A stretch of 64,000 bases of DNA from Candidatus Lutacidiplasma silvani (GTDB taxonomy: Archaea; Thermoplasmatota; Thermoplasmata; Lutacidiplasmatales; UBA184). The position numbers and the translations under genes are program-made. The stretch spans positions 80,989-144,988 of the forward strand of contig JAKIVZ010000002.1 of assembly GCA_022750295.1 (NCBI GenBank), written 5' to 3'. Shown piece by piece: positions 1 through 14,563 of this stretch (the stretch's first letter is position 1; each line of letters begins with the position of its first letter). The notes beneath the pieces are model-generated. The model was not told the DNA's origin. It did not search any database and saw only the letters and a list, made by a program, of their open reading frames with translations.

Positions 1-309
1 TTCGCGTTCGCGGTCGGGCCGGGAACGTACAACGTCAGCGTCGCCGCGCCGGGGTACTCGGCCGCCAATGTCACGGTGGCGACCGGTCCTGCCGGGACCT
101 ACGCCACGGTCGCGCTCGAAGGGGTCCCCGCGATCGGCCCGGCGGGGGGGTCCTCCTTCCCAGTCCTCGAGGTCGGCCTTGTCGGCCTAGCCGTGGCGGC
201 GGTCGCGGTGGGAGCGCTCGCCTGGCGCCGGGGCCGGACCCCCAAACGGCCCGAGCCGGCGACTCCCGAATCCTCCGCGGCGCCGTTGGGCGAGGACGAA
301 CTTACGTGA
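1..309 (+). CDS. 3' fragment of a secreted/surface protein with a C-terminal transmembrane anchor; the gene starts upstream of the window
   Basis: Frame 1 is open from base 1. It encodes Gly/Thr/Ala/Val-rich repeats (GPGTYNVSVAAPGYSAANVTVATGPAGTYATV), then a hydrophobic helix (VGLVGLAVAAVAVGALAW) followed by RRGR. TGA at 307-309. Confidence 0.4.
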   Translation, partial: FAFAVGPGTYNVSVAAPGYSAANVTVATGPAGTYATVALEGVPAIGPAGGSSFPVLEVGLVGLAVAAVAVGALAWRRGRTPKRPEPATPESSAAPLGEDELT

Positions 310-769
310 CGACGACGAACGCGCGCATGATCCCGTGGTAGGTGCCACAGAACTCGGTGCACTGGATCAGGTAGGTCGTCCCGACGGGGACCATCGGAAC
401 CGCGAACGCGAGCGTGTTGATGCGGCCCGGGATCGCGTCGATCCGCACGCCGAGGTTCGGGATGTTGAACGAATGGATGACGTCGACGCTCGTGACGTTG
501 ATCTGCACTTCGGCCCCGGGTTGGACCCAGAACGCCCCGCCGGTCGCCGTGTTGTTCGCCGGGTTGTACGTCGCGTTCGCGCAGGTGCCGTTCTGCGGGT
601 AGCAGAACTCCCAGTACCACTGGTGGCCGACGACGTCGACGTATTCGGTGACGTCGTTCGGGATCGAATCGACCTGGAACAGCAGGATCGTCGAATAGGC
701 AAGGACCCCGGCGAGGAGGGCAACGACGGCGAGGGTCCAAGCGTACTCCATCTTGCGGGTCTTATCCAT
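302..769 (-). CDS. coxB: heme-copper oxidase subunit II (cupredoxin/CuA domain)
   Basis: HQWYWEF motif and the CuA ligand pattern H...C.EFCG..H..M (CTEFCGTYHGIM). One N-terminal TM helix precedes the cupredoxin domain. Confidence 0.85.
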   Translation of the reverse strand: MDKTRKMEYAWTLAVVALLAGVLAYSTILLFQVDSIPNDVTEYVDVVGHQWYWEFCYPQNGTCANATYNPANNTATGGAFWVQPGAEVQINVTSVDVIHSFNIPNLGVRIDAIPGRINTLAFAVPMVPVGTTYLIQCTEFCGTYHGIMRAFVVVT

Positions 770-1166
770 AACGTCGCCCCCGGGTGTGCGGGTCGCGGTA
801 CCGCCAGAGGGCGTAGGCGAGGAACGCGTAGGTGACGAGCGCCCCGGCGACCGAGATCGCGATGAGGACCCAGAGGAGCGGCTCCGTCGCCTGGAGGTTC
901 GTTTGCTGGGCGGAGGCCACCCCCGCCAGGGACGCGATCACCCCGCCGGCCCCCAGTCCGAGGAGCGCGCGGTCCACGGGCCTCGGACGCACAACGGGCA
1001 CGAGGTCCCGCGCTTGATATTCATCGCGTATGAACTGGAAACGCCGCCCGGCCGGCGGGTTCGGTGGCTCGACCTCCCCAGGTACGTACCAAACCCCTTT
1101 GAACCGCTCCCCCCGTCCGCCGCCCAAGCGCGAGCCCTCCGCGCCCCGGAAAACCAACGATGCCAC
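762..1166 (-). CDS. small ORF whose C-terminus carries a transmembrane helix, overlapping the coxB start by 8 nt in another frame; possibly the detached first TM helix of subunit II
   Basis: C-terminal LLWVLIAISVAGALVTYAFLAYALWRY is a TM helix followed by a TAA stop at 762-764. There is no internal ATG, so the true start is unclear (GTG/TTG). The N-terminal half is low-complexity and may not be coding. Confidence 0.3.
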   Translation of the reverse strand: MASLVFRGAEGSRLGGGRGERFKGVWYVPGEVEPPNPPAGRRFQFIRDEYQARDLVPVVRPRPVDRALLGLGAGGVIASLAGVASAQQTNLQATEPLLWVLIAISVAGALVTYAFLAYALWRYRDPHTRGRRYG

Positions 1167-1846
1167 CGTCGCAGAGGCGTGCCAGCGCCGCGTTGCTCGT
1201 CGTCGCGCTCGTCCTTTCGATTGCCCTCGTCCCGTCGATCTCCGGCCCGCGATCGTCCGCCCCGAGCTCCGGCGTCCGAACCTCGACCAACGGGGTCGAC
1301 TATCTCAACGTCAGCGTCACCGACTCCCTCACGTTCGAGACGAGCCTCAGCGAGGTCCAGCCGGGCGACACGGTCCACGTGACGGTGACCCAGCTCGGGA
1401 CCATTGACCACACGTTCACCCTCGCGCCGACCGCCGGCTTCACGTTCCCCACGACCGATTCGGCGGGGGACTTGGACAGCTACTTCTCGTCCCACGCTCC
1501 CCTCGTCGACGTTCAGGTCGGCACGACGACGGGCGGCCACTACTTCGGGAACTTCACCGCCCCCCCGGTCGGCGTCTACGAGTATGTCTGCGAGGAACCC
1601 GGGCACTTCCCGAGCATGTCGGGACTGCTAGGGTCGGGCGAGGCGCCCGGGAATCTCGCAACGAATACCGGACCGGGCGCCCCGGTGTACATTATCGCCG
1701 GCTCGATCGTCGGCCTCGTGATCGTCGCGCTCGTCCTCGGGTTCGTCGTCGGCAAGCGCCGCGGTTCCTCCGACGAGATGCCCCCGGAGCGGCTCGGGTA
1801 TCCCGAGCCGACGCCCACGACCCCCGAACCTCCGCACGCTCCGTAG
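1160..1846 (+). CDS. membrane-anchored type-1 (blue) copper protein, sulfocyanin/halocyanin-like
   Basis: N-terminal signal/TM segment, a cupredoxin domain with the T1 Cu ligand motif YEYVCEEPGHFPSM (C, H, M), a C-terminal TM helix and a Pro/Thr tail. Confidence 0.75.
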   Translation: MPPSQRRASAALLVVALVLSIALVPSISGPRSSAPSSGVRTSTNGVDYLNVSVTDSLTFETSLSEVQPGDTVHVTVTQLGTIDHTFTLAPTAGFTFPTTDSAGDLDSYFSSHAPLVDVQVGTTTGGHYFGNFTAPPVGVYEYVCEEPGHFPSMSGLLGSGEAPGNLATNTGPGAPVYIIAGSIVGLVIVALVLGFVVGKRRGSSDEMPPERLGYPEPTPTTPEPPHAP

Positions 1847-1897
1847 GTACGGCGTTTCCGTCGGCCGGAAGCCGGAAAGCCTAAGAAGGGTGAGCCG

Positions 1898-2980
1898 TTG
1901 CCAACCTACGGACCTCGTAAGAGGTTCGAGGGTTTTCCAATGGCGTGGGGCGTTCCGAGCCGTGAGCGACGTGTGCTGAAGGCCGGACACTCGTCGATCG
2001 CGGTCACGCTCCCGAAACCGTGGGCGGAAGCGATGAATCTCCACCCCGGGGACCTTATCGTTTTCGACCAAAACGACGACGGAACCCTCTACCTCCGGCC
2101 GGCCCCGGTCGCCGGCGCGGTCCTCGTCACGTCCCCGTACCTCGTCCAGGCCGCCGCGTTCGACACCCCGGGGGTCCTGGAGCGGCTGATCGTCGGTGCC
2201 TACCGAGTGGGCCACGACGCGATCGAGATTCGGAGCGACGCCCCATTCTCCCCCGAGCGGATTGACGAGCTCCTCTCGACGGCCCGACGGCTGATCGGCG
2301 TCTCGGTCGTCGCCCAGGAGCCGAACCGGATCGTGCTCCAGAACTTCATCGACCCGTCGAAGTACGGACTGCCCCAGCTGGTCCAGCGGATGAAGATGAT
2401 CCTCATCGCGTTCCTCGAGGAGTCGGAAGCGCTCCTCGAGCGGAAGGGGCACGCGAAGAGGCTCCCTTCCCTCGACGAGGAGACCCAGCGGGTCCTCGCC
2501 CTCCTCGTCCGGCAGCTGTTCCTCGCGAGCCGCGACTGGTCGCTCGCGCGCCGGATCGGGAGCCCGGACCCCCGGCAGCTCCTGGAGTGGCGAGTCGTCG
2601 TGCACGCGCTCAACCAGCTCGGGGGACTTCTCTCCGAGATCGCCGACCTCCTCGAGGCCAGCCGGGAGCGACCGACCGGCGACACCGCCGCGCTCCGGAT
2701 CCACCTCGCCGAAGTCAAGCTTGGGTTGAAGTCGGTCGTCGACGCGCTGATTCGCCCGTCGCTCACCGACGCTTGCGAGGCGTACGCCCAGGTCCAGGCG
2801 CTCGGGGTCTCGGCTCGCGAGAGTGCCGACCAGATGGGCGTCACCGCCCGGCGCGCCGGACTCCACGCCGCGACCGTCGCCGCCCAGCGGAGCGCCGGAT
2901 GCCTCTCGACCCTCGCCGAGATCGCGGTCGACCGCGCGGTCGCGCTCGGGAATGAGAGCGTCGTTCTCGCGTCGGCGTGA
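1898..2980 (+). CDS. AbrB/SpoVT-domain plus PhoU-like domain regulator (phosphate-uptake-regulator-like)
   Basis: N-terminal swapped-hairpin motif (HSSIAVTLPKPWAEAMNLHPGDLIVF) followed by a long helical PhoU-like region. The real start may be the internal ATG (MAWGVP) about 40 nt downstream. Confidence 0.6.
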   Translation: MPTYGPRKRFEGFPMAWGVPSRERRVLKAGHSSIAVTLPKPWAEAMNLHPGDLIVFDQNDDGTLYLRPAPVAGAVLVTSPYLVQAAAFDTPGVLERLIVGAYRVGHDAIEIRSDAPFSPERIDELLSTARRLIGVSVVAQEPNRIVLQNFIDPSKYGLPQLVQRMKMILIAFLEESEALLERKGHAKRLPSLDEETQRVLALLVRQLFLASRDWSLARRIGSPDPRQLLEWRVVVHALNQLGGLLSEIADLLEASRERPTGDTAALRIHLAEVKLGLKSVVDALIRPSLTDACEAYAQVQALGVSARESADQMGVTARRAGLHAATVAAQRSAGCLSTLAEIAVDRAVALGNESVVLASA

Positions 2981-3076
2981 GCCGCCTTAAGTAGCGACCG
3001 TACGGACAGTTCGTACGGGTCGCACTACCCGGTACGAACGCCACATACCCCCCGCCCCGGTGGTCGCCGGGAACCC

Positions 3077-3289
3077 ATGTTCGATTCGATAGACGACTGG
3101 CTGATCATCGGCATCGTGGTCGCGATCTTGTTCTACGGCTCGAGCAAGATCCCGCAACTGGCCCACAGCCTCGGTCGGTCGATCGGCGAGTTCAAGCGCG
3201 GCCGCCTCGAGGTCGAGCGCGAGCTCAAGGCCGAACAGACTCGCGACGCGGCGACCGCCACCGCCACCGCCGCCGCCGACCCCCGGTAG
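3077..3289 (+). CDS. tatA: twin-arginine translocase subunit TatA/E
   Basis: MFDSIDDWLIIGIVVAILFYGSSKIPQLAHSLGRSIGEFKRG is the canonical TatA TM helix plus amphipathic helix. Confidence 0.8.
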   Translation: MFDSIDDWLIIGIVVAILFYGSSKIPQLAHSLGRSIGEFKRGRLEVERELKAEQTRDAATATATAAADPR

Positions 3290-3395
3290 ACAGAGATCCC
3301 GAGGCGAGATGGGCAACGTCGGACCGGTTCGGGCCCCCGTCGGAGCCCTCCCCGGTGTCGGCCCGGTCCCCGCACGGAGCAGGTGGGTGTGACGC

Positions 3396-4226
3396 ATGGG
3401 GGAGCTCGACAAGATCCTCGCCATCCTTGGCGAGGTCCGGCGGCGCCTCGTCCGGGTGGTCCTCGTCCTGGCCCCCATCTTCGGGTTCCTCGTCACGTTC
3501 GAGCTGAAGCCGTATCCGGTCCACGCCCTCGGTCGGACGATCCCGCTCGCGTACCCGTGGCCGAACCTGTTCTACAACGTGACGGCCCAGGTGTTCATCG
3601 CGCTCGAGCGATGGATGCTCCCGCCGAAGGTCGAGCTCCTGAACGTCGGGGTCGGCGACTCGATCGTCGTCCAGATGGAGATCGGCGCGCTCCTCACGCT
3701 GATCCTCGGGATGCCGTGGATCGTCCACGAGGTCGGCGCGTTCCTGCTGCCGGCGCTCCGGCAGAACGAGCGAGAGATGATCCGGCAGGTCGGGATCCCG
3801 GCGACCGCGCTGTTCGCGCTCGGCACGGGGGTCGGCGTGTTCTTCCTCACACCGCTCACGTTCCGGCTGCTCTTCCTCTACGTGGCCGCGATGGGGCTCG
3901 CGCCGGTCCTCGGGGTCCAGCAGTTCGTCCAGTTTGCGCTCCTCTACCCGATGGCGTTCGGCCTCGTCTTCGAGATGCCGGTGTTCCTCTACGCCCTCAC
4001 CCGGCTCGGGGTCGTCAAGGCCGCCACGTGGCGCCAACACTGGCGCGCGGCGGTGATCGGCTCGCTCGTCTTCGGGATGATCGTCACCCCCGACAACTCG
4101 GGGATCACGATGCTCCTGATCGCGGTCCCGATGATGGGGCTCTACCTCGCGGGGGTCGTGTTCGCGACCCGGTGGGAGTCGCGGTCGACGGGCCGGCGCG
4201 GAGCCGCGGCGGTCGCGGCGGGGTGA
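3396..4226 (+). CDS. tatC: twin-arginine translocase subunit TatC
   Basis: About 276 aa with six predicted TM helices and a TatC-like N-terminus (LGEVRRRLVRVVLVLAPIFGF). Confidence 0.8.
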   Translation: MGELDKILAILGEVRRRLVRVVLVLAPIFGFLVTFELKPYPVHALGRTIPLAYPWPNLFYNVTAQVFIALERWMLPPKVELLNVGVGDSIVVQMEIGALLTLILGMPWIVHEVGAFLLPALRQNEREMIRQVGIPATALFALGTGVGVFFLTPLTFRLLFLYVAAMGLAPVLGVQQFVQFALLYPMAFGLVFEMPVFLYALTRLGVVKAATWRQHWRAAVIGSLVFGMIVTPDNSGITMLLIAVPMMGLYLAGVVFATRWESRSTGRRGAAAVAAG

Positions 4227-4232
4227 ACTAAG

Positions 4233-4628
4233 ATGGCTCTGTTCTCCGACATCGACTGGGGGATCCTCCTCGCCGTCGCCGGGTTCCTCTTTCTCGGCAA
4301 AGAGAGCGGGGCCGCGCTCCGGCAATTCGGCCGGTACTACGGCCGGTTCGTCCGACTGAAGCAGGAGCTCCTCGGCGAGCTCACGCGCGCGGCCGAGCTC
4401 CCCGCGCCCCCGACCGGCGGCGCCCTCTCGTTCCGCGGCGCACTCCTCGGCTACCCCGAGGGGTCTGCCACTCCGGGGATTCCGATCGCGGTGACGTCCG
4501 CTCCGTTGGCCGTGGCGGCGCTGGCCGCCGTGGCGAGCCCCGCCCCTGCGATCCCGAGTGGGATCGGTCCGGACCGCTGGTCCGTGGCGCTCCCCTCCGC
4601 CGCGCTGGAGGCGCCGTTCGTCCGATGA
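4233..4628 (+). CDS. second TatA/TatB-like protein with an Ala/Pro-rich C-terminal tail
   Basis: MALFSDIDWGILLAVAGFLFLGKESGAALRQFGRYYGRF has TatA/B architecture. Its stop overlaps the next start (ATGA). Confidence 0.55.
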   Translation: MALFSDIDWGILLAVAGFLFLGKESGAALRQFGRYYGRFVRLKQELLGELTRAAELPAPPTGGALSFRGALLGYPEGSATPGIPIAVTSAPLAVAALAAVASPAPAIPSGIGPDRWSVALPSAALEAPFVR

Positions 4629-4810
4629 CCGCCCTCTCCCTCGACGACCAGGTGACGATGGTCGAGATGTTCCTGATTCTCGTCGGGATCGGGATCACCT
4701 GGGCCGTCTACTACGGCAGCGACCGGGCGGAACTGCCGGGCGACGCGACGACCCCCGCGCCGGGCCACGCGGATGACATGGAGATCGATGCCCGCGGGAG
4801 GACCCTCTGA
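4625..4810 (+). CDS. small single-TM membrane protein (61 aa), translationally coupled between tatA2 and the Rieske gene
   Basis: ATGA overlap with the upstream gene and TGATG overlap with the Rieske start. Hydrophobic helix MVEMFLILVGIGITWAVYY. Confidence 0.4.
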   Translation: MTALSLDDQVTMVEMFLILVGIGITWAVYYGSDRAELPGDATTPAPGHADDMEIDARGRTL

Positions 4811-5616
4811 TGTCGTACCCGTGCCCCACGAGCTGTCCGTTCTCGGTCGGGCCCGCCTCGGCCCTCGAGTTTCCCGTCGGGCAACTCCACCGGTTCCGCG
4901 GCTCGAACGCCGTCCCGGGGGAGGTCGACGAAACGAAGCGGAACGTCCTCAAGCTCCTCGTCGCCGCCGGGGTCGTAGGAGCCGCGGGGGGCGGCCTCGT
5001 GGCCGGTTCGCTCCAGTTCGCCCAGCCGCCGACCGTCGGACTGACGTCGTTCCCGCGCGTTCAGCTCCTCGACCTCGACGGGAGTCCGCTGACGGTCACG
5101 AACGTCGAGAAGGAGTACAACGCCGGCACGACCGATGTGTTGACGTTCAACTATCCGCTGCGGAACGAGCCGAACTTCCTGATCAACGTCGCCCCCGCCC
5201 CCGGCACCTCGGCCGGAGCCTCGAACGTCGTCCACGGGGTCGGAACGCAGAACTCGATCGTCGCGTTCAGCGCGATCTGCCAACACCTCGGCTGCCCCGC
5301 GCCGGCGATCCATTACTATCCACCGGGAATGTGCCCGCAGAGCCCGGGCGGCCGCCCGTTCTACATCCACTGCACGTGCCACGGCTCGACGTACGACGTC
5401 ACCAACGGAGCGGCGAACCTCACGGGGCCCGCGGTGCTTCCCCTCCCCCAGGTCCTCCTGGAGTGGGACCAGACCGACGACACCCTGTACGCGGTGAACG
5501 AGGTCGGACCGCCGGTCAACGGCCACCTCGATACGTTGTCGGGCGACTACGGCGTCGGCACTTCGAGCCAGCTCTCCAAGCAGTCGCCGGTCGTCGCCTG
5601 CAACTTCCCATCCTAG
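4810..5616 (+). CDS. Rieske [2Fe-2S] iron-sulfur protein of a bc-type complex (SoxF/SoxL-like)
   Basis: Both Rieske boxes are present: CQHLGC and CTCHGS. A TM/signal region follows a KRN(VLK) Tat-like motif. Confidence 0.85.
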   Translation: MSYPCPTSCPFSVGPASALEFPVGQLHRFRGSNAVPGEVDETKRNVLKLLVAAGVVGAAGGGLVAGSLQFAQPPTVGLTSFPRVQLLDLDGSPLTVTNVEKEYNAGTTDVLTFNYPLRNEPNFLINVAPAPGTSAGASNVVHGVGTQNSIVAFSAICQHLGCPAPAIHYYPPGMCPQSPGGRPFYIHCTCHGSTYDVTNGAANLTGPAVLPLPQVLLEWDQTDDTLYAVNEVGPPVNGHLDTLSGDYGVGTSSQLSKQSPVVACNFPS

Positions 5617-5626
5617 GAGGACGTCG

Positions 5627-6982
5627 GTGGGATTCGAGCGTTGGTTCAACCGGACCCTCAACCAGGTCTGGGGATTCATTGAGGACCGGACGGGGATGCC
5701 CAAGTGGGCGCTCCGCCCCCAGCCCGAGTTCACCTTCAAGCCGTCGTACTGGACCGGGGCGTTCGTCGTCAATGCATTCCTGTACCAGGTGATCTCGGGG
5801 CTCCTGCTCCTGCTGTATTACCAGCCGAGCGTCAATCCGACGTACACCGCGTGCGGCCAGCCCGTGGGGACCCTCTCGACGTCCCCGGCGGCATGGTGCA
5901 GTACGTACTACATCGTCCATTCGGTTCCGATGGGGTCGCTCCTCCTCTCCACCCACCTCTACGGCTCCTATGCGATGATCTTCCTTGCGATCGTCCATTT
6001 CTTCCGCGGCTACTACCTCGGCGTCTACAAGGCGCCCCGCGAGTTCTCCTGGATGGTCGGCACGCTGCTGATGCTGACGACCCTCGGGATGGGGTTCACC
6101 GGGTACCTCCTCCCGTACACCCAGATCTCGCTCAACGCGACCAACGTCGGCCTCGTCCTGGCCCTCCGGCTGCCGTACGCGGGCCCGTTGATCGGCCCCC
6201 TCCTCCTCTCCGACGGGACCGGCCAAGGATTGCTCTCACGGATGTTCGCCGCCCACGTCGTCCTTTTGCCGCTCGCCTTGGGCGCGCTCCTCTACGCCCA
6301 CATCGCTTTGTTCGAGTCGCACGGGATCGCCCCTCCGGCGACGTCCGACCCGTTGCAGCGGCGGCGGTTCACCGAGGAGGAGGACAAGAAAAACGTCCCG
6401 TTCATGCCCCACATTTTCTTCTACATCACCAAGTGGGCGTTGCTCTACATCGGGCTCCTGATCGGCATCGCGGCCCTCTGGCCGTGGAACCTTCCGACGT
6501 ACGCGGGCGACCTCACGGCGACGGGGATCGTAACCGAGCCCGATTGGTACTTCCTCTGGTTGTTCAAGTTCCTCGACTTCCAGGGGGTCACACCGGTGAT
6601 CGCCATCGGCGTCACGACGGTGATCATCCTGTACGTGTTGTTCCTGCCGTTCCTCGACCGGTCGAAGGCGACGCACCCACGGGACCGCCCGGTGTTCATC
6701 ATCATCGGCACCTCGATGCTCGAGTTCTGGTTCCTGATGACCGTCTGGGGCGGTCTCACACCGGGGGTCGCCATCACTCCCATGGAGGTCGCGCTCCGGA
6801 TCGGCCCGCTCTTCGCGGCGAACGCCGTGGTCGTCGCCCTGTTCCACTGGCGGTACCGCAAGAGCTACCGGGCCCGGATGGCGGCCCGGACCGGCGCGGC
6901 GAGCACCTGCCCCGGCGCCTACCCCAGCTCGTTGGTGGGTGGATCGCGCCCGTCCGTCGCGGAGGCGAGTGCCCGTGACTGA
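5627..6982 (+). CDS. cytochrome b (bc complex, SoxG/SoxC-like; cytochrome b plus subunit-IV-like C-terminal region)
   Basis: Multi-TM protein with conserved cytochrome b His-containing helices (HLYGSYAMIFLAIVHFFRGYY; HVVLLPLALGALLYAHIALF). Confidence 0.85.
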   Translation: MGFERWFNRTLNQVWGFIEDRTGMPKWALRPQPEFTFKPSYWTGAFVVNAFLYQVISGLLLLLYYQPSVNPTYTACGQPVGTLSTSPAAWCSTYYIVHSVPMGSLLLSTHLYGSYAMIFLAIVHFFRGYYLGVYKAPREFSWMVGTLLMLTTLGMGFTGYLLPYTQISLNATNVGLVLALRLPYAGPLIGPLLLSDGTGQGLLSRMFAAHVVLLPLALGALLYAHIALFESHGIAPPATSDPLQRRRFTEEEDKKNVPFMPHIFFYITKWALLYIGLLIGIAALWPWNLPTYAGDLTATGIVTEPDWYFLWLFKFLDFQGVTPVIAIGVTTVIILYVLFLPFLDRSKATHPRDRPVFIIIGTSMLEFWFLMTVWGGLTPGVAITPMEVALRIGPLFAANAVVVALFHWRYRKSYRARMAARTGAASTCPGAYPSSLVGGSRPSVAEASARD

Positions 6983-7241
6983 GACGGAATCCCCGAAGTT
7001 CCGGACCGGGTGGCTCTGGGGAATCCTCGGGATTCTTCTGGCGATCGGCACGGTCGCCGCCGGGTTTGTCGTCTACGGATTGACCCAGCTGCTCGCGACC
7101 GGGAACTGGTGGCTCGACGTCCCCGCGTTCGTCGGCGGGGCGGTCGTCGCCACGTTCGCCATGCTCCTCATCACCGGGATCCTCTACCGCGTCGACCGGC
7201 TGCGCGGGACCCCCCACCGGGAGGTGCGGCTCTTTGAGTGA
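6939..7241 (+). CDS. small two-TM membrane protein (possible supernumerary oxidase subunit)
   Basis: Hydrophobic helices (WLWGILGILLAIGTVAAGFVVYGL; FVGGAVVATFAMLLITGILY). The start is uncertain because it overlaps the cytochrome b 3' end. Confidence 0.35.
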   Translation: MDRARPSRRRVPVTETESPKFRTGWLWGILGILLAIGTVAAGFVVYGLTQLLATGNWWLDVPAFVGGAVVATFAMLLITGILYRVDRLRGTPHREVRLFE

Positions 7242-7632
7242 AGCATCCCCGAGCCCGGATGCGATGGTCGACTACCTTGAAGCCCACCGCTCCCAGGCCG
7301 TCGCCAAGGTCCTCGAGCTCTACAACGCGACGACGGTCCTCCTCCTGCTCGGGATCGCTGGACTGGCCATCTACGCGTTCCGGCTCGGTCCGCTCGTCGG
7401 GCCGGGGGTCGAGGAGTCGTTCGGACTGGCGGCTGGCGCGATGTTCGTCATGGGCGCGCTTCTCGTCCACCTTGTCGACCGGACCTACCGGAGCTGGCCC
7501 CTCGGCCGCAAGTTCCGGCCGGAGGTGCCGCCCGCCGTTTCACCGGCCGGGACGGCGCGGTTGGTCACCTGGCTGATCGTCCTCGCGGCGGCCGCCGGGA
7601 TTGTCTACGTCGTCGCCCAGCTGATCATGTGA
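7234..7632 (+). CDS. small multi-TM membrane protein (possible SoxI-like accessory subunit)
   Basis: Three hydrophobic helices, no recognisable domain, located between the cytochrome b and coxA genes. Confidence 0.4.
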
Positions 7633-7648
7633 AGGGGGAACCGAACCG

Positions 7649-9352
7649 ATGACTGATCTGGTAACGCCCGGCATCGAAATCGCCATGATCGTGGCGCTCG
7701 CAGCGTTCGGGCTCTACCTCACGCGCTACCACGGCGAGTGGTTCGTCAAGAAGGCGTCGCTGTACCTCTTCACCACCGATCACAAGCGCATCGGATTGAT
7801 GTACATCACCACGGGTATGGTGTTCTTCTTCATCGGCGGGATCTACGCGATCCTGATCCGGACCGACCTCGGCTTCGTGCAGGGACTCGGTCTCGACCCG
7901 CAGACGACCCTCGGAATCACCCCGGACGTCTACTCGACCCTGTTCACGATGCACGGGGTTCTGATGATCTTCATGTTCATCATGCCCGTCCTGGCCGGGT
8001 TCGGCAACTACCTCGTCCCGTCGATGATCGGGGCGAAGGAGATGGCGCTCCCCCGGATCAACGCGATCGCGTTCTGGATGCTCCCGCCCGCGGGCGTGAT
8101 CCTGATCCTGTCGAACGCGTACGCGGGTTGGACCGGCTACGTCCCCCTCTCCATCGAGGCGTACGGGCCGAACCCCCACGGGGTCGACCTCTGGATCCTC
8201 GGACTCCACATCCTCTCGGCTTCGTCGATGCTGGGCGCGATCAACTTCCTCGTCACCATCGTCAAGCACCGGGCCCCCGGCGTCCACTACTGGAACATGC
8301 CCCTCTTCGTCTGGGCGACGCTGATCAACTCGGTCCTCCTGATCTTCGCCCTCCCGTCGCTGTCGATCGCGCTCACGATGGTCCTTTCCGACCGGAACTT
8401 CGGGACGCACATCCTCGCGGCCGCGAACGGCACGCCGCTCGGCGGCGCGCTCCTCTATCAGAATATGTTCTGGTTCTTCGCCCATCCCGAAGTCTACGTG
8501 ATGGTGTTACCGGCCTTTGGTATCATCTCCACGGTCATTCCCAAACTCGCGCGGAAGGACATCTTCGGGTACGGCGCCATGGCGATCTCGCTCGGCGTGT
8601 TCGCCGTCCTTTCGTTCGCCGTCTGGGAGCACCACATGTTCGTCACGGGGCTCCCCCCGGACGTCCAGTTCGTCTTCATGCTCTCGACGATGGCGATCGC
8701 GGTCCCCTCCGCCGTCAAGACGTTCAACTGGGTCGCGACCCTCTGGGGCGGCAAAATCTGGATGGCGGTCCCGATGTGGTTCTCGGTGGCGTTCATCACC
8801 GGGTTCGTGATCGGCGGCCTCTCGGGCCTCATGTTGGCCGCGATCCCGGTCGATTACCTCTATCACGCGACGTACTTCGTCGTCGCGCACTTCCACTACA
8901 TCCTGCTCGGCGGGACGCTGATGGGGATCTTCGCGGGGATCTACTTCTACTACCCGATCTGGACCAAGCGCTGGTATTCCCAGCGGCTCGGCCACGTCCA
9001 CTTCCTCCTCACGTACATCGGCGTGAACCTCCTGCTGTTCCCGATGTTCCTCCTCGGCGCCGAGGGGATGCCCCGGCGGGTCTACACCTACCTTCCGACG
9101 CTGAACTTCCAGGAGCTGAACTTCCTCGCGAGCGTCGGCGCGATGATCCTCGGGGTCGGCCAGTTGGTCTTCGCGTTCAACATGGTCTACAGCTACTTCG
9201 CCGGCCAGAAGGTCACGACCGACGACCCGTGGGACGAGCCGGCCCCCACGCGGATGATCGGCGGGACCCCCGCGCCCGCGCCGGCCCCGCTCCCCTCGTC
9301 CCACCGGACGCCGCTCCCGACGACGGCGCCGTCGATCGAGCCGACCCCGTAG
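7649..9352 (+). CDS. coxA: heme-copper oxidase subunit I
   Basis: 567 aa, 12+ TM. Conserved CoxI regions include WFFGHPEVY (here [17 protein letters not shown]) and the HH metal ligands (HFHYILLGG). Confidence 0.9.
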
Positions 9353-9373
9353 CGCCGACTAGGAACGCAACCA

Positions 9374-9949
9374 ATGCAGAGGCACACCATCTTCCGGCTC
9401 CTCGCGATCGCCGCGTTCGCCTCGACGTACGTGACGATCATCCTCGGAGGGAACGTCATCGCCACCGGGTCTGGCCTCGCCTGCCCGGACTGGCCGTCGT
9501 GCCACGGCAACTTCCTCCCCCCGCTCAGCGGCCAGACCGCGATCGAGTGGGGACACCGGGTGAGCGCGTTCGTGACCGGCGCTCTCGTCGCTTCGATGAC
9601 GCTCGTCGGCCTCGCCTCCGAGCGGCGCCGACCCGTCCTCCGGGGCCTCTCGGTCTGCGCGTCGCTCCTGGTCCTCGCCGAGGCGATGCTCGGAGGGCTG
9701 GTCGTCGACACCCGGCTCGTGGTCGGGGTCGTCCTGTTCCACTTCCTCCTCGCGACGGTCCTGTTCGGCCTCCTCCTCCTGATCGCCTTCTTGGCGAACG
9801 TCCGCGACATCCCGAAGAAGTGGGCGTCGTGGGCCGAACGGGCGATGGTCGAAGAGAAGCCGAGCGAGACGCTCGCCCGGCTCGATCGTCGGGCCATCCC
9901 GGGTCCCGGCCCGGCCCCGGGACCCTCTCGCGGCGCCGACGGCCGCTGA
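9374..9949 (+). CDS. ctaA: heme A synthase, short archaeal type
   Basis: CPDWPSCHG cysteine loop and conserved His residues in TM helices; about 190 aa, four helices. Confidence 0.7.
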   Translation: MQRHTIFRLLAIAAFASTYVTIILGGNVIATGSGLACPDWPSCHGNFLPPLSGQTAIEWGHRVSAFVTGALVASMTLVGLASERRRPVLRGLSVCASLLVLAEAMLGGLVVDTRLVVGVVLFHFLLATVLFGLLLLIAFLANVRDIPKKWASWAERAMVEEKPSETLARLDRRAIPGPGPAPGPSRGADGR

Positions 9950-9979
9950 CCGGCCCCTCGGTCGGGATCGGAGAGGAAG

Positions 9980-10903
9980 ATGAGCGAGTCACCGGCCCCC
10001 GCGACGCCGGCCCCGACCCCGTCCCGCTGGCGGGACGTGGTGACCCTCACGAAGCCGGGGATCACGGCTCTGATCGTCCTCGTCGCCGTCGCCGGGTACT
10101 TCCTCGCCCTTCCGTCCCCCGTGAACTTCGGCCGACTCGGCCTCCTCGCGCTCACGGGCGGTCTCGCCTCCGCGGGCTCGGCGATGCTGAACCACTACCT
10201 CGACCGGGACGTCGATGGCGGAATGAAGCGGACCCGGAGCCGCCCGCTCCCGGGGTCCCGGATCCAGCAGAGCGGGGGCGTCCTCGTCGCCGGCACGGCT
10301 CTCGTGGCGTTGGGGGTGGGGGGAGCGTTCCTCTGGCTCAACCCGCTGACGGCCGTTTCGATCGCGCTCGGCGCACTCACGTACGTCGTGGTCTACACGG
10401 TCGTCCTCAAACGGCGGACGAACTGGAACATCGTCATCGGCGGGTTCGCGGGCAGCGCTCCGGCGCTCGCGGGCGGGGCAGCCGCGGTCGGGAGCTGGAC
10501 CGTCCCTGTCCTCGCGTTCGCGCTCCTCGTCTTCCTCTGGACGCCTCCCCACTTCTGGAGCCTCGCGCTGCTCCTGCGGGAGGACTACCGGCGGGTCGGG
10601 CTTCCGATGTTGCCAAGGATGGACGACCCGGCGTACTCGGGCCGCATCGTCGTCGTCTCGGCCGCCCTCCTCGTCCCCGCCTCGATCCTTCTCGTCCTTG
10701 TGGCCCCGTTCGCCTGGCCGGCGGCCGTCCTCGTCCTCCTCGCCGTGGTCGCGTACTTCGCGCTCGCGCTCCCCCTCTGGCGGCGGGTCGACCGACCGGT
10801 GGCATTGCGGGCGTTCATCGGTTCGGGGCCGTACCTCCTCGCCATCATCGCGGTCCTGATCGTCAACTTCTGGCTCCACGCGATCGGCGTCGCCTCTCTT
10901 TGA
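9980..10903 (+). CDS. ctaB: protoheme IX farnesyltransferase (heme O synthase), UbiA family
   Basis: UbiA-family motifs NHYLDRDVD and DRDxD-like; multi-TM, about 300 aa. Confidence 0.85.
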   Translation: MSESPAPATPAPTPSRWRDVVTLTKPGITALIVLVAVAGYFLALPSPVNFGRLGLLALTGGLASAGSAMLNHYLDRDVDGGMKRTRSRPLPGSRIQQSGGVLVAGTALVALGVGGAFLWLNPLTAVSIALGALTYVVVYTVVLKRRTNWNIVIGGFAGSAPALAGGAAAVGSWTVPVLAFALLVFLWTPPHFWSLALLLREDYRRVGLPMLPRMDDPAYSGRIVVVSAALLVPASILLVLVAPFAWPAAVLVLLAVVAYFALALPLWRRVDRPVALRAFIGSGPYLLAIIAVLIVNFWLHAIGVASL

Positions 10904-10912
10904 GCCCTCCGC

Positions 10913-11677
10913 GTGGCGCCCGGGGAAGCGCGACGTTATGCTCGCCGCAGTGGTGATTGGGTCGTGACCGACCGAGCTCCGACCGGGACGGGGCGTGACG
11001 TCCGCGACCGACTGCGCGAAGCGGAATCGACGCTCCGGCGGCTCGGGTACGCCCGCATCGAACCGAGCGTCCGGGAGGGCTCCGCACCCCCCGCGTTCTG
11101 GGTCCAGGAGGCCGGTGTTCCCCGCCGCACGTTCCCCGTCTTCGTTCCCCCCACCGGCGAGGCCAGCGGGGCCGGCCCGTGGTCGGGGTCGAAGCCCCGG
11201 GGCGGGCGGGCCGCTCCTTCAAGCCGGGCGATCGTCGTCGTCGGCAGCGACCTCGCCGCCGAGGCAACGTGGAATCGGATCGCCTCCGAAGGGGGGGCGG
11301 AACTCGACTCCGAGGTTCGGATCCTGGTCCTCGGCGCCGCCGAACAGGACCGACCCCACTGGCACGCCATGGTCGTCGACCGACGGACCCTGCTCCGGCT
11401 CTCCACCGGGGTCGTCGTCGGGATGTTCCGGCGGGCGTTCGCCTCGGGGGGACAGACTCCCGTGGACTTCTCCGAGCTCCTCGAGATCCTCCGGGAGCGG
11501 TTCCATCTCGACGTTCCGGGCTCACTTGGGGTCTCCTCGGACGAGGACGCGCTCTTCCTCCTCTACCAGCTCGCGCAGCGGGATTCGTACGCGCCCGGAG
11601 ACTCGGCATCGAACCTCCACTCCCTCGTGCTGAAGCCGACCGGGCCGGCGGCCCGCCTTCCCTGGTTCGCGGGCTAG
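10913..11677 (+). CDS. hypothetical protein (254 aa), no recognised domain
   Basis: Intact ORF with a plausible C-terminal globular region (LLRLSTGVVVGMFRRAF...LLEILRERFHLDVPG). Function unknown. Confidence 0.35.
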   Translation: MAPGEARRYARRSGDWVVTDRAPTGTGRDVRDRLREAESTLRRLGYARIEPSVREGSAPPAFWVQEAGVPRRTFPVFVPPTGEASGAGPWSGSKPRGGRAAPSSRAIVVVGSDLAAEATWNRIASEGGAELDSEVRILVLGAAEQDRPHWHAMVVDRRTLLRLSTGVVVGMFRRAFASGGQTPVDFSELLEILRERFHLDVPGSLGVSSDEDALFLLYQLAQRDSYAPGDSASNLHSLVLKPTGPAARLPWFAG

Positions 11678-11727
11678 CGCCGCACGAACCGAGCCGTTAA
11701 GAATCGGGGCGCGAACTCCTCCCCGAG

Positions 11728-11913
11728 GTGCCGATGCCGCCGTCCGAGGTCGTGAATCCCTATGCCACCACGCCGGGAAGCTCCACGCCGGGCCGCGGGG
11801 TCTCCGCCGAGGAGGGGGTCGCCGACCTCTGGTCGTTCTTCTGGCTCTCGATCATCGGGACCGTCGTCATCGTCGGCGTCGGGATGGCGGCGTTCCTCGT
11901 CGTGCACCCCTGA
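11728..11913 (+). CDS. possible small single-TM protein (61 aa)
   Basis: C-terminal hydrophobic helix LWSFFWLSIIGTVVIVGVGMAAFLVV; weak support. Confidence 0.2.
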   Translation: MPMPPSEVVNPYATTPGSSTPGRGVSAEEGVADLWSFFWLSIIGTVVIVGVGMAAFLVVHP

Positions 11914-11974
11914 CGAAGTTCTGCTCGGAACCATTATCTCCCGGCCGAGGGTCGGCGCCGCCGTCGCCCGGAAT

Positions 11975-12049
11975 GGGGCCGTGGGGTAGCTTGGTCCATC
12001 CTTCTTGCTTGGGGTGCAAGAGACTCCGATTCAAATTCGGACGGCCCCA
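11975..12049 (+). tRNA. tRNA-Pro (anticodon GGG)
   Basis: 7-bp acceptor stem GGGGCCG/CGGCCCC. Anticodon stem CTTGC/GCAAG with loop TTGGGGT (anticodon GGG at 12011-12013). T-stem TCCGA/TCGGA with loop TTCAAAT. 75 nt, no encoded CCA. The D-arm spacing is slightly non-canonical by hand folding. Confidence 0.6.
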
Positions 12050-12107
12050 TCCGGGCACCCGGGCGGTCGGGTTCGTGCGATGCTAGACCGCGTCGGATGA
12101 GGTCGCG

Positions 12108-12716
12108 ATGGGACGACGATTCGTGGCCGAGCGCCGCCGGGACCCGTACTACCGGGCGGCGCAGGACGAAGGGCTCCGTTCGCGGGCGGCGTTCAAGCTC
12201 GAGCACCTCGCCGAGCGGTTCCCGATCTTCCACGCTGGGGACCGGGTCTTGGACCTCGGCGCCGCTCCCGGCGGGTGGTCGATCGTGGCGGTCGAGCGGG
12301 TCGGCCGGCGGGGCGAGGTCGTCGCGGTCGACCCGCGGGCGGTCGACCCGATCGAGGGCGTGACGGTCGTCCACGGGATGGTGGGGTCGCCCGGGTTCGC
12401 CGACCGTCTGGGCCCCGAGCCGTTCGACGTCGTCCTCTCCGACATGTCGCCGCGGATCAGCGGCGCCTACGCGACCGACCACGCACGGTCGGTCGCGCTC
12501 GTGCGCTCCGCGTTCGAGCTCGCCGGGCGCGTGCTCGCGGAACGGGGCGTCTTCGTTGCGAAGGTGTTCGCGGGCGAGATGCTCGACGAGCTCGACCACG
12601 ACGTCGGACCGTCGTTCCGACGCTGGTCCCGGACGAAGCCGCCCGCGTCGCGAGAACGGTCGAGCGAGCTCTACCTCATCGGCATCGGATTCCATCGCGT
12701 CCCGGACCCGGCGTGA
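12108..12716 (+). CDS. rlmE: 23S rRNA (uridine-2'-O)-methyltransferase RlmE/FtsJ
   Basis: YRSRAAFKL, SAM-binding DLGAAPGGWS and the catalytic K..D..K pattern of the FtsJ family. Confidence 0.85.
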   Translation: MGRRFVAERRRDPYYRAAQDEGLRSRAAFKLEHLAERFPIFHAGDRVLDLGAAPGGWSIVAVERVGRRGEVVAVDPRAVDPIEGVTVVHGMVGSPGFADRLGPEPFDVVLSDMSPRISGAYATDHARSVALVRSAFELAGRVLAERGVFVAKVFAGEMLDELDHDVGPSFRRWSRTKPPASRERSSELYLIGIGFHRVPDPA

Positions 12717-13345
12717 TGGAGCCGTGGGTCGAGGCCGCCGACCGGATGGTCACCGGGCTCGGCGACGTCGCCGGTCCGGTCGCCGCGGCGATGCGGGCCG
12801 TGCCGCGCCACTATTTCGTGCCGAGCGTGTCGCTCCGCCGAGCGTACGACGACGAGCCCGTACCGCTGGGCCCGGACTACGCCACGGTCTCCGCCCCTCA
12901 CATGGTCGCCATGCAGCTCGAGGCCGCGGACCTCGAGCGGGGCGACACCCTACTCGAGATCGGCAGTGGGAGCGGCTACCTCCTCGCGGTCGCCTCGCAC
13001 CTCGTGGGCGCCCCCGGCCACCTCGTGGGTGTCGAAGTCGACGCGACGCTCGCGGCCCGAAGCCGGGCGACCCTCGCGCGGCTCGGGGTCGATGCGACGA
13101 TCCGGATCCGCGACGGGCGCGAATCGGTCCCGGAAGGTCCCGTGTTCGACGGTGTGGTCGTGTCGTGCGCGACTCCGCATCTCTACCCGTCGTGGATCGC
13201 CGCGCTCGCCGATGGGGGCCGGCTGGTCGCGCCGGTCGGAACCCCGACCGAGCAGGCGCTCACCCTCTACCGCAGGACGGGCGACCGGGGGAGCACGAGC
13301 GTCGGACCGGCGTGCCGGTTCGTTCCGCTCCGACCCCATATATAG
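12716..13345 (+). CDS. pcm: protein-L-isoaspartate O-methyltransferase
   Basis: VPRHYFVP and LEIGSGSGY motifs. ATG at 12716 overlaps the rlmE stop (TGATG). Confidence 0.8.
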   Translation: MEPWVEAADRMVTGLGDVAGPVAAAMRAVPRHYFVPSVSLRRAYDDEPVPLGPDYATVSAPHMVAMQLEAADLERGDTLLEIGSGSGYLLAVASHLVGAPGHLVGVEVDATLAARSRATLARLGVDATIRIRDGRESVPEGPVFDGVVVSCATPHLYPSWIAALADGGRLVAPVGTPTEQALTLYRRTGDRGSTSVGPACRFVPLRPHI

Positions 13346-13390
13346 GGCCGTCGAATACGGCCGTCCCGCCTATTTTGAGGGTCGGTCGTT

Positions 13391-14563
13391 GTGATTCGGT
13401 TCGGCCCTGCGGGTATCCCCCTTTCCTGTAAGGGTCGCACCCTGCGGGATGGAATCTCCGACGTCCACCATCTCGGCTTGACCGCGATGGAAGTGCAGTT
13501 CATCAAGGTCAATCCGCTGACGCGGATCGCCCTCGACGAGGAGATTGGCAAGAACGCGCGCGAGCTCGCGTTGCAGCTCGTGGTCGGCGTCGGGCCCGGC
13601 CCGGTCGCCGCGGTCCCGACCGCCGAGCGGATGCTCGCGTCGATCGGGAAAAAGGACTCGCTGACCACGCTCACGTGGAGCCTCGCGAAGGACTATGCCG
13701 ACCTCGCCCAGACACGGGCGCTCGCCCGCGCGCTCGACGTCGACCTCACGCTCCACGCCCCGTACTACGTCGACTTCTTCGGAAGCCAGGAGGCCCGCGA
13801 ACGCTCGATGCGCCAGATCCAGTGGGCGGCGGTTCTCGCCGAGGGGCTCGGGGCCCGAATGGCGGTCACCCACCTCGGCTTCTACGGTCCGGGCGGCCGC
13901 TCGGACAGCGTCCAGGAGCTGACGCGGATCGCACGCGAGCTCTCCGACTGGCTGAAGACGTACTCGAAGGGGACGGTCCGGCTGGGAATCGAGCCGAGCG
14001 GCCACCCCGACGTGTTCGGTTCGCGCGAGGAGATCCTCGAGGTCGCCCACCAGGTGAAGGGCGTGGTCCCGATCATGAACCTCCCCCACCTCGCGGCGCG
14101 GGAGCGCCATACGTTTGACACCCCCGACGACCTTCGGCCGCTCGTCGACGAGTTCGTCGCCGCGAGCGGCGGCGAGCTCTACATGAATTTCGCCGGCGTG
14201 GAATTCTACGGCCCCGGGGAGTTCCGTCTCACCCCGATCAAGCGGGGTCAGGCGCGCTTCGACCCGGTCGCCGAACTGTTCGCCGACCGGGAGTACGACG
14301 TGACGGTGATCTCGAGCTCGCCGCTCCTCGAGCACGACGCGATGTACATGAAGCTCCTCTACGAGCGGGCGCTCGCGAAGCGGTACGCGAAGAAGCACGC
14401 GCCGGTTCCCCCGGTACCGAAGAAGCCCCTCATCGCACCGTCGAAACCGGCCGGAAAGGCCCCGCTCCGACCGCCGCCCGCGGGCGGTCGGCGCCCGCTC
14501 CTCGCCGCGAAGGCGTCCGTCGCCCCGAAGAGGTCCGACCGTGACCGAAAGCGACACCGCTGA
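13391..14563 (+). CDS. TIM-barrel protein of the xylose-isomerase-like/AP endonuclease family 2 fold (sugar-phosphate isomerase/epimerase or endonuclease IV-like), with a Lys/Pro/Ala-rich C-terminal tail
   Basis: LTLHAPYYVDFF resembles the HAPY(L/V) metal-binding strand of this fold; also THLGFYGP. The roughly 70-aa K/P/A-rich tail is unusual. Confidence 0.45.
   Translation: MIRFGPAGIPLSCKGRTLRDGISDVHHLGLTAMEVQFIKVNPLTRIALDEEIGKNARELALQLVVGVGPGPVAAVPTAERMLASIGKKDSLTTLTWSLAKDYADLAQTRALARALDVDLTLHAPYYVDFFGSQEARERSMRQIQWAAVLAEGLGARMAVTHLGFYGPGGRSDSVQELTRIARELSDWLKTYSKGTVRLGIEPSGHPDVFGSREEILEVAHQVKGVVPIMNLPHLAARERHTFDTPDDLRPLVDEFVAASGGELYMNFAGVEFYGPGEFRLTPIKRGQARFDPVAELFADREYDVTVISSSPLLEHDAMYMKLLYERALAKRYAKKHAPVPPVPKKPLIAPSKPAGKAPLRPPPAGGRRPLLAAKASVAPKRSDRDRKRHR

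Follow-up and report, generated by a model that had tools for sequence, protein, structure and literature searches.

Twin-arginine translocase genes at the head of a respiratory gene string in Candidatus Lutacidiplasma silvani: a divergent TatA-family paralogue and a putative Rieske client

The window analyzed here is a stretch of 64 kb (positions 80,989 to 144,988 of contig JAKIVZ010000002.1, assembly GCA_022750295.1) from the archaeon Candidatus (Ca.) Lutacidiplasma silvani, with a G+C content of 70%. Its first 11 kb are occupied by a respiratory locus (Table 1) in which two genes for twin-arginine translocation (Tat), tatA and tatC, are followed by an open reading frame (ORF) for a 131-aa protein, here termed ORF3, by a gene for a 61-aa membrane protein and by the gene for a Rieske 2Fe-2S protein. 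These five ORFs were noted in an initial annotation made from the letters of the sequence, and all were recovered at the same positions in the ORF list and on reading the sequence. The overlaps that had been claimed for them also are legible, with ATGA at 4625–4628 and TGATG at 4808–4812. The TatC protein of the window is 100% identical to a protein listed at NCBI under 'Thermoplasmata archaeon', and its relatives carry the name Ca. Lutacidiplasmatales.

Table 1. Features of the respiratory locus, in coordinates of the 64-kb window.
Feature	Position	Strand	Evidence or remark
coxII	302–769	minus	Pfam COX2, E=3.3e-19
76-aa membrane ORF	762–992	minus	
Blue-copper protein (cupredoxin)	1160–1846	plus	Weak match to Pfam Copper-bind, E=0.016
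AbrB/MazE-domain regulator	1898–2980	plus	Pfam MazE_antitoxin, E=3.8e-10
Candidate promoter/operator	2987–3047	plus	TATA-like TTAAGTA at 2987–2993, then three CGTACG(G/A)(A/G) repeats at 2998–3007, 3010–3019 and 3030–3039
tatA, 70 aa	3077–3289	plus	Pfam PF02416 and TIGR01411
tatC, 276 aa	3396–4226	plus	Pfam PF00902
ORF3, 131 aa, divergent paralogue of the TatA/B family; tail long and poorly conserved	4233–4628	plus	Profile comparison with TatA
61-aa single-pass membrane protein	4625–4810	plus	Overlaps ORF3 (ATGA) and the Rieske gene (TGATG)
Rieske 2Fe-2S protein, 268 aa	4810–5616	plus	Pfam Rieske, E=2.4e-6
Cytochrome b, 451 aa, Rieske partner	5627–6982	plus	Pfam Cytochrom_B_N_2, E=4.9e-38, with Cytochrome_B and Cytochrom_B_C
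Downstream block (two small membrane ORFs, coxI, ctaA, ctaB)	6939–10903	plus	ORF list
coxI	7649–9352	plus	Pfam COX1 on the orthologue of locus L001
ctaA	9374–9949	plus	Pfam COX15-CtaA on the orthologue of locus L001
ctaB	9980–10903	plus	Pfam UbiA on the orthologue of locus L001

For the order Lutacidiplasmatales, complex IV genes have been described previously as neighbors of those for complex III, for heme A/O synthesis and for twin-arginine translocation, and of genes for a cupredoxin and for six products of unknown function (Sheridan et al., 2022; PMC9287336). A reference locus, that of Ca. Lutacidiplasma sylvanus AcS3-62 (AcS3-62_00358-00372), is set out in Supplementary Data 9 of that paper, and its products are 155, 76, 228, 346, 70, 276, 131, 61, 268, 451, 88, 122, 567, 191, and 307 aa in length. 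Gene order and strands are alike in the AcS3-62 locus and the window; 11 of the protein sizes are equal outright and the other four are equal after choice of an internal start codon. Judged by these gene sizes, the window locus is the AcS3-62 reference locus or one near-identical to it. The location of Tat genes beside those for complexes III and IV thus is already published for this locus and is not new. The two accounts differ in how certain genes are read. The 276-aa product with six transmembrane (TM) segments is named 'tatB' in the paper, whereas its counterpart in the window is TatC by comparison with Pfam, NCBIfam and the Protein Data Bank (PDB), so that the published label should read tatC. 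Similarly, the 131- and 61-aa genes are of unknown function in the paper, whereas the present analysis places the former in the TatA family. The paper does not discuss a Tat motif in the Rieske protein, the gene overlaps or a mosaic history of the block. What is new here is modest: the membership of ORF3 in the TatA family, a KR/RR motif in the Rieske protein behind a conserved cytoplasmic extension, the conserved gene junctions, and a break in the history of the locus between tatC and ORF3.

Related loci were collected from one genome per species with clade-specific peptide patterns, a scan that returns only close orthologues. Eighty loci were kept, all from Thermoplasmata metagenome-assembled genomes (MAGs) and with TatC 66–88% identical, to which loci L001–L003 were additional. 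A homologue search with the Rieske protein likewise was saturated with matches from Lutacidiplasmatales, and papers on Cuniculiplasma and E-plasma do not state where tatAC lie relative to the Rieske and cytochrome b genes. The order tatA-tatC-ORF3-61-aa gene-Rieske-cytochrome b was retained in every locus that was long enough among the 80 and L001–L003, and cytochrome b was found downstream of the Rieske gene in every locus of sufficient length. The gap between tatC and ORF3 measured 4–12 nucleotides (nt) in almost all related loci. In 68 of 76 loci ORF3 shared 4 nt with the 61-aa gene, and in 65 of 74 the overlap between the 61-aa and Rieske genes was either 4 nt or 1 nt long. As these overlaps recur across related loci, they are not due to chance. 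The proposal in the initial annotation that the Tat genes lie within the respiratory locus and are tightly coupled to the Rieske gene consequently holds, the coupling being kept in ~75 species-level genomes and in both of the locus types that are described below. The spacer between tatA and tatC, at 3290–3395 in the window, is ~91–119 nt long in nearly all of 76 loci and its sequence is barely conserved.

The tatA product matched the Pfam model TatA_B_E (PF02416) with E=1.7e-11 and 43.6 bits against a cut-off of 21, and scored 56.8 bits with the NCBIfam model TIGR01411 (tatAE), above the cut-off of 53.9. The protein possesses the architecture of a transmembrane helix, a hinge (FYGSSKIP) and an amphipathic helix, with a hydrophobic moment of 0.64 compared to a mean of 0.41 for shuffled sequences, and is 65–94% identical across loci over the aligned segments. 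TatC was assigned with E=2.2e-40 and 139.2 bits for PF00902 (cut-off 25.1), and matched the solved TatC structures of Escherichia coli (E=2.7e-18) and Aquifex (E=7.6e-16), although its 154.7 bits with the narrower NCBIfam equivalog TatC-Arch were below the cut-off of 192.6. Residues E13 and E125 of TatC are invariant among 23 orthologues. E125 aligns with E103 of E. coli TatC within a significant match, whereas E13 is paired with E15 only by a stretch at the N-terminus where the match is weak and non-significant. In the E. coli protein, E15 and E103 form the binding site for the arginine pair.

A second TatA/B-like gene had been suggested downstream of tatC, and both hhalign and reciprocal searches with hidden Markov models (HMMs) bear this out: ORF3 is a divergent paralogue of the TatA family. 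The ORF3 profile was aligned by hhalign with the local TatA alignment over 52 columns with a probability of 95% and E=3e-8. When 16,034 stop-to-stop segments were searched, the TatA HMM retrieved 41 ORF3 segments (best E=6e-5) and nothing unrelated; conversely, the ORF3 HMM retrieved 78 TatA segments (best E=1.4e-6), which equals the number found by the TatA HMM itself, and again nothing unrelated. Cross-matches between ORF3 and tatA also were detected by tblastn at four loci. The consensus of ORF3, in which MALFSDIDW precedes a hydrophobic segment, FG and, further on, LGRWYGR, aligns with the TatA pattern MFDSIDDW, a hydrophobic segment, YG and LGRSVGE. A single-sequence AlphaFold2 model of ORF3 comprised a helix at residues 5–20, a break at 21–24, a second helix at 25–55, and a disordered tail, with block means of the predicted local distance difference test of ~69–84 over residues 11–50 and low overall model confidence. 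The second helix is strongly amphipathic, with a hydrophobic moment of 0.69 compared to a mean of 0.43 (standard deviation 0.10) in shuffled sequences. Among 1.84 billion representatives, the ORF3 family accounted for 46 matches at E<=0.001, a few of which were spurious or frame-fused. TatC and ORF3 were found in one continuous frame at two places, P0280 with a 375-aa product and locus L067 with an open segment of 1.2 kb at 9995–11227; these read-throughs most likely are frameshift or assembly errors.

The 61-aa protein is represented by 71 distinct orthologues which share the motifs GIGITWAVYYGSERAELPGE and RGRTL. It matched no family in Pfam or NCBIfam and hhalign detected no similarity to TatA. 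An hhalign match between the protein and the tail of ORF3 was discounted as artefactual, since a small number of the extracted ORF3 sequences were frame-fused, the P0280 and L067 read-throughs being of this kind. In Supplementary Data 9 of PMC9287336 the protein is of unknown function and is confined to Lutacidiplasmatales.

The related loci are of two types with different histories on either side of the junction between tatC and ORF3. Type-2 loci (L051, L068, L070, and L071, the last equal to L084; around 8,800–13,800) are without coxII, the regulator gene, coxI, ctaA, and ctaB, but retain a cupredoxin-like ORF, tatA, tatC, ORF3, the 61-aa gene, the Rieske gene, and a longer cytochrome b gene (498–506 aa). 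Their layout corresponds to TMEG-bg1 in the table of PMC9287336. In TatA and TatC, type-2 loci share 82–90% identity with the type-1 locus L076, which belongs to the clade {L001, L062, L063, L076}. In contrast, identities to L076 are ~47–56% for ORF3, 40–44% for the 61-aa protein, 55–57% for the Rieske protein and 51–53% for cytochrome b. When all pairs of loci were compared, identities between type-1 loci climbed with TatC identity, whereas those between type-1 and type-2 loci were flat at any TatC distance, at ~0.35/0.35/0.57/0.54 for ORF3, the 61-aa protein, the Rieske protein and cytochrome b, respectively. The origin of the type-2 block was assessed with neighbor-joining bootstraps in place of a test of diagnostic columns (synapomorphies), of which there were too few. 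Type-2 TatA plus TatC emerged as sister to {L001, L062, L063, L076} in 42 of 50 bootstraps, compared to none of 50 for Rieske plus cytochrome b and none of 50 for ORF3. Thus, the differing placements reveal a break in history between tatC and ORF3. By these comparisons, ORF3, the 61-aa gene, the Rieske gene and the cytochrome b gene are one evolutionary module behind a vertically inherited tatA-tatC pair. The type-2 block may reflect either replacement by an old or foreign version or a burst of change, with replacement favored because the identities between the two types are flat. The initial annotation had envisaged Tat paralogues tied to their client. A weaker form of that idea stands for ORF3 only, which is co-inherited with the Rieske protein and cytochrome b, and does not extend to tatA and tatC.

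The Rieske protein is, by profile and structure matches, related to the SoxL/SoxF type of Sulfolobales without being a member of the SoxL2 equivalog: the match to NCBIfam SoxL2 (TIGR03171) had E=2.7e-41, but its 141.6 bits were below the cut-off of 582.1, and the closest solved structure is that of SoxF (1JM1, E=3e-18). The cluster-binding motifs CQHLGC and CTCHGS are intact and conserved. The KR-type, Tat-like motif that had been noticed ahead of the membrane anchor is present and conserved as KR or RR. In the window it extends from E41 to K48 (4930–4953), with T42-K43-R44-N45-V46-L47-K48 at 4933–4953, and its consensus among orthologues is DET[KR]RN[VILFM]L followed by K. Of 70 distinct orthologues, 57 have KR at the site of the arginine pair and 12 have RR; the remaining one, which looks mis-extracted, lacks the motif. 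The second arginine never varies, K/R exchange being confined to the first position, and 69 of the 70 sequences match [STA][KR]Rx[FLIVM][LIVMQ]K. In type-2 loci the motif reads DEARRNFL or DETRRNFL. The anchor that follows, at residues ~47–71 (4948–5022), is rich in Gly and Ala and only weakly hydrophobic: its maximal 19-residue Kyte-Doolittle mean is 1.9, with 47% Gly, Ala, Ser, or Thr, compared to a mean of 2.4 for the cupredoxin signal.

Residues 1–40 of the Rieske protein (4810–4929) form a conserved cytoplasmic extension ahead of the motif in both locus types. The extension includes a cysteine pair, which is a strict CxxxC in 55 of 70 orthologues and is part of YPCPTSCPF in the window, as well as the motif FPVGQ[VL][RH]R. 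No known domain was matched by these 40 residues, which may be a docking or quality-control element. As they are conserved as protein, the start of the Rieske gene at 4810, and hence its overlap with the 61-aa gene, are real.

A variant KR or RK motif also is known in the chloroplast Rieske protein. The Rieske proteins of bacteria and plastids (Paracoccus, Legionella, chloroplast) are established Tat clients with an uncleaved signal anchor. Like the window protein, they have a Tat-type motif in the N-terminal part, next an anchor helix and then a C-terminal domain that bears the cofactor. Unlike them, the window protein is of the archaeal SoxF/SoxL type and carries ~40 conserved cytoplasmic residues before the motif, and the translocase genes are joined into the same gene string as the Rieske gene. 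KR and RK variants at the motif site likewise are described for mitochondrial Rieske proteins, and transport of KR variants for other systems. Rieske proteins also are the recurrent or only recognizable clients in reduced Tat systems, namely those of Anaplasmataceae and mitochondrial TatC, although there, unlike in the present locus, the tat genes are unlinked to the Rieske gene. According to Supplementary Data 9 of PMC9287336, Thermoplasmatota genomes which possess this TatC family also possess cytochrome b. Overall, a Tat dependence of the Rieske protein appears well motivated.

The arrangement was at first thought to point to substrate-specific Tat paralogues, that is, to a dedicated system separate from a housekeeping one. 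This was not borne out. No second tatA or tatC gene is present in the 64-kb window. In Supplementary Data 9 of PMC9287336, where families were delimited with Roary at 35% identity with paralogues unsplit, both the tatA family and the 276-aa, six-TM TatC family have one member in AcS3-62, which makes this look like the only Tat system of that genome, an outcome that the initial annotation itself had named as contrary to its proposal. The same copy number of 1 is given for every other Lutacidiplasmatales genome in which the families were detected and for Thermoplasmatales genomes; a few genomes with a copy number of 0 also lack the neighboring genes of the locus. The published copy number therefore speaks against a paralogous, dedicated system, and TatA and TatC look like the sole, general Tat system of the organism. 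Among the 80 loci kept, moreover, contigs of 2.18, 1.84, 1.81, 1.66, and 1.48 Mb, which are large or closed, contribute one locus each. Two loci were recovered from each of two MAGs, SMAG_U12189 (L016 and L070) and SMAG_U12138 (L015 and L049). However, L015 and L016 share 99.6% identity over 12.8 kb despite their origin in MAGs that represent different species, so that these two MAGs look like mixed bins; probably they do not show that one cell has two Tat systems.

The TATA-like box and CGTACG repeats upstream of tatA (Table 1) lie 30–90 nt 5′ of that gene and directly 3′ of the regulator gene. Alignment of 77 upstream regions revealed a conserved TTTATCTA/TTAAGTAG box and a near-invariant GTACGGAC..CGTACGGGTC..CCGTACGAACGCCATAT pattern. 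By its appearance, the element would serve the entire tat-to-cta gene string as a regulated promoter that includes operator sites. A scan for sigma-70 promoters and intrinsic terminators was set aside because it is not applicable to archaea, and oligo-T runs and AT-rich boxes were sought instead. No run of at least five T was present on the plus strand in 1–12,500. The conserved gene order, the junctions, the lack of oligo-T runs and the upstream element fit with one long transcription unit that starts 5′ of tatA, and co-transcription of the tat-to-cta string is suggested by this arrangement.

The data establish which genes are present, that their order, their overlaps and the Rieske motif are conserved, that ORF3 is homologous to TatA, and that the locus has a mosaic past. 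Co-transcription, the Tat dependence of the Rieske protein and any role of ORF3 or of the 61-aa protein are proposals. In the preferred reading, considered probable as a whole, the genes of a lone TatA/TatC translocase head the respiratory gene string, the Rieske protein enters the membrane by means of its KR/RR signal anchor, and ORF3 acts as a TatB-like accessory. Behind the TATA-like box and CGTACG repeats, the string would comprise tatA, tatC, ORF3, the 61-aa gene, the genes for the Rieske protein and cytochrome b, two small ORFs, coxI, ctaA, and ctaB. The Rieske protein would acquire its 2Fe-2S cluster and fold in the cytoplasm; TatC then would recognize the internal KR motif (RR in some relatives) at residues 41–48, the C-terminal domain would cross the membrane, and the uncleaved helix rich in Gly and Ala would remain behind to anchor the protein, which is also how Rieske proteins of bacteria and plastids are held. 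With the translocase genes located directly 5′, the Tat machinery would be made together with its main, and possibly near-only, client. ORF3, inherited with the 61-aa protein, the Rieske protein and cytochrome b, would most likely assist insertion of the Rieske protein, either in the manner of TatB or as an accessory specific to this client.

If this reading is correct, the Tat pathway is an integral part of the assembly line of the respiratory chain in this order of soil archaea. The translocase and its principal client would issue from one gene string, which can be compared with the reduced Tat systems of some intracellular bacteria and of mitochondria that appear to be kept mainly for the Rieske protein. 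The finding is no new kind of system, and the practical gains are small but concrete. One of the six genes of the published locus that were assigned an unknown function now is a TatA-family paralogue, the KR/RR motif of the Rieske protein is a testable signal, and the mosaic loci amount to a natural experiment in which it can be asked if a TatA-like subunit and its client evolve together.

A number of observations weigh against this reading, among them some that concern ORF3 and its comparison with TatB. Bacterial TatB (TIGR01410) is a TatA-like receptor subunit that is encoded beside tatC, and ORF3 likewise directly adjoins tatC. ORF3 also resembles bacterial TatB in being longer than TatA (131 compared to 70 aa) and in combining a core of transmembrane segment, hinge and amphipathic helix with a variable tail. 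In contrast to bacterial TatB, ORF3 matches neither a TatB nor a TatA model and is located downstream, not upstream, of tatC. ORF3 may be a client-side Tat accessory, either a receptor of the TatB kind or a helper of insertion that is attuned to the signal anchor of the Rieske protein. The bolder version, in which archaea have in ORF3 a first counterpart of TatB, a lineage-specific TatA paralogue working with TatC in such a role and exchanged with the client block behind a vertically inherited tatA-tatC, is doubtful. Were it true, specificity of the Tat system would reside in a swappable, client-linked third subunit and not in duplicated whole systems.

Against these proposals, ORF3 gave no Pfam match at E<=10 and no NCBIfam match at E<=1, none of 21 members of its family matched TatA_B_E, and Foldseek comparison of the ORF3 model with the PDB returned no match, as expected because the shape is so simple. 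Furthermore, co-inheritance of ORF3 with the Rieske protein and cytochrome b suits a subunit of complex III equally well. Accordingly, ORF3 and the 61-aa protein may both belong to the Rieske/cytochrome b complex, as subunits with a role in its structure or its assembly. ORF3 would then be merely descended from TatA and without a part in translocation, while TatA and TatC alone insert the Rieske protein in the manner of the two-component TatAC systems of other archaea and Gram-positive bacteria. Such an arrangement would accommodate the co-divergence and co-inheritance of the two proteins with the Rieske protein and cytochrome b instead of with TatA and TatC, the translational coupling to the Rieske gene, the restriction of the ORF3 family to Lutacidiplasmatales, the failure of ORF3 with TatA and TatB models and the reported lack of an identifiable TatB in archaea. 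However, ORF3 has retained the whole core of TatA, from the acidic N-terminus and DW motif through the transmembrane helix and Gly hinge to the amphipathic helix, and starts 4–12 nt after tatC in almost all loci, which is where a component of the Tat system would be expected. Subunits of complex III are the main rival explanation for the two proteins, but an unlikely one.

Further points against the involvement of Tat concern the Rieske motif, which in the window is TKRNVLK and thus has KR and not the strict RR of the consensus S/T-R-R-x-F-L-K. The motif is located at residues 43–44 (39–53 in orthologues), beyond the first 35 residues. The TatFind rule requires RR within the first 35 residues, by which the window protein would be rejected. 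This position outside strict predictor rules would fit with a different view, that adjacency of the tat and respiratory genes reflects only a compact genome and is without meaning, the Rieske protein being inserted by Sec/YidC; mitochondrial Rieske signals also reportedly gave Tat-independent export in a heterologous test. Nevertheless, the linkage persists in ~75 species-level genomes and has outlasted both loss of the oxidase genes and a swap of the downstream block, the motif is nearly invariant apart from the K/R exchange at its first position, and bacterial and plastid Rieske proteins are established Tat clients. Meaningless adjacency is judged highly improbable in view of these data.

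The status of TatA and TatC as the sole Tat system is taken from a published table of families, from which a TatC of <35% identity would escape. Archaeoglobus, which has a TatC, has a value of 0 for that family, so that the family is not all-inclusive. In Bacillus subtilis, TatAd and TatCd are encoded with their client PhoD and constitute one of two parallel Tat systems. The present locus is like the TatAd/TatCd-PhoD arrangement in that translocase genes adjoin, and probably are co-expressed with, a specific client, but differs from it in that there is one copy each of the tatA and tatC families. An extra, single-substrate system of the TatAd/TatCd-phoD kind, paralogous to a housekeeping one elsewhere in the genome, would explain the tight linkage to one plausible client and the two MAGs with two loci each, but can scarcely be reconciled with the copy number of 1 published for AcS3-62 and nearly all genomes of the order, the single locus on each large or closed contig among the 80 kept and the mixed appearance of those two MAGs.

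Two more points tell against the preferred reading, in which the translocase is made together with the Rieske protein as its main client. Co-transcription of the string is a proposal from gene spacing, and a homologue of molybdenum sulfite oxidase reported for the order is a possible further client outside the window. In favor of the reading, within the window the Rieske protein was the only credible protein with a Tat motif among 59 gene calls, a crude set with 86% of the window called as coding. The cupredoxin was considered as a conserved Tat client and rejected: QRRAS, part of MPPSQRRAS in the window, is not kept, and the nearest relatives have HVR, YAR, or PVR at this position. Although RR is present in the n-regions of 35 of 70 cupredoxin orthologues, none fits [ST]RRx[FLIVM][LIVMA], and the signal probably is of the Sec type in an arginine-rich context. 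Matches of CoxI and CtaA to the Tat-motif expression were dismissed as internal membrane segments. A loose match in the Tat-motif scan also was noted outside the respiratory locus in a 976-aa membrane protein (33648–36578, minus strand), which carries GGRRTILVLLGLLVG ~45 residues from its N-terminus. The adjoining gene at 36594–37274 has a product with a start resembling that of an ATP-binding cassette (ABC) ATPase, and the 976-aa protein probably is a permease.

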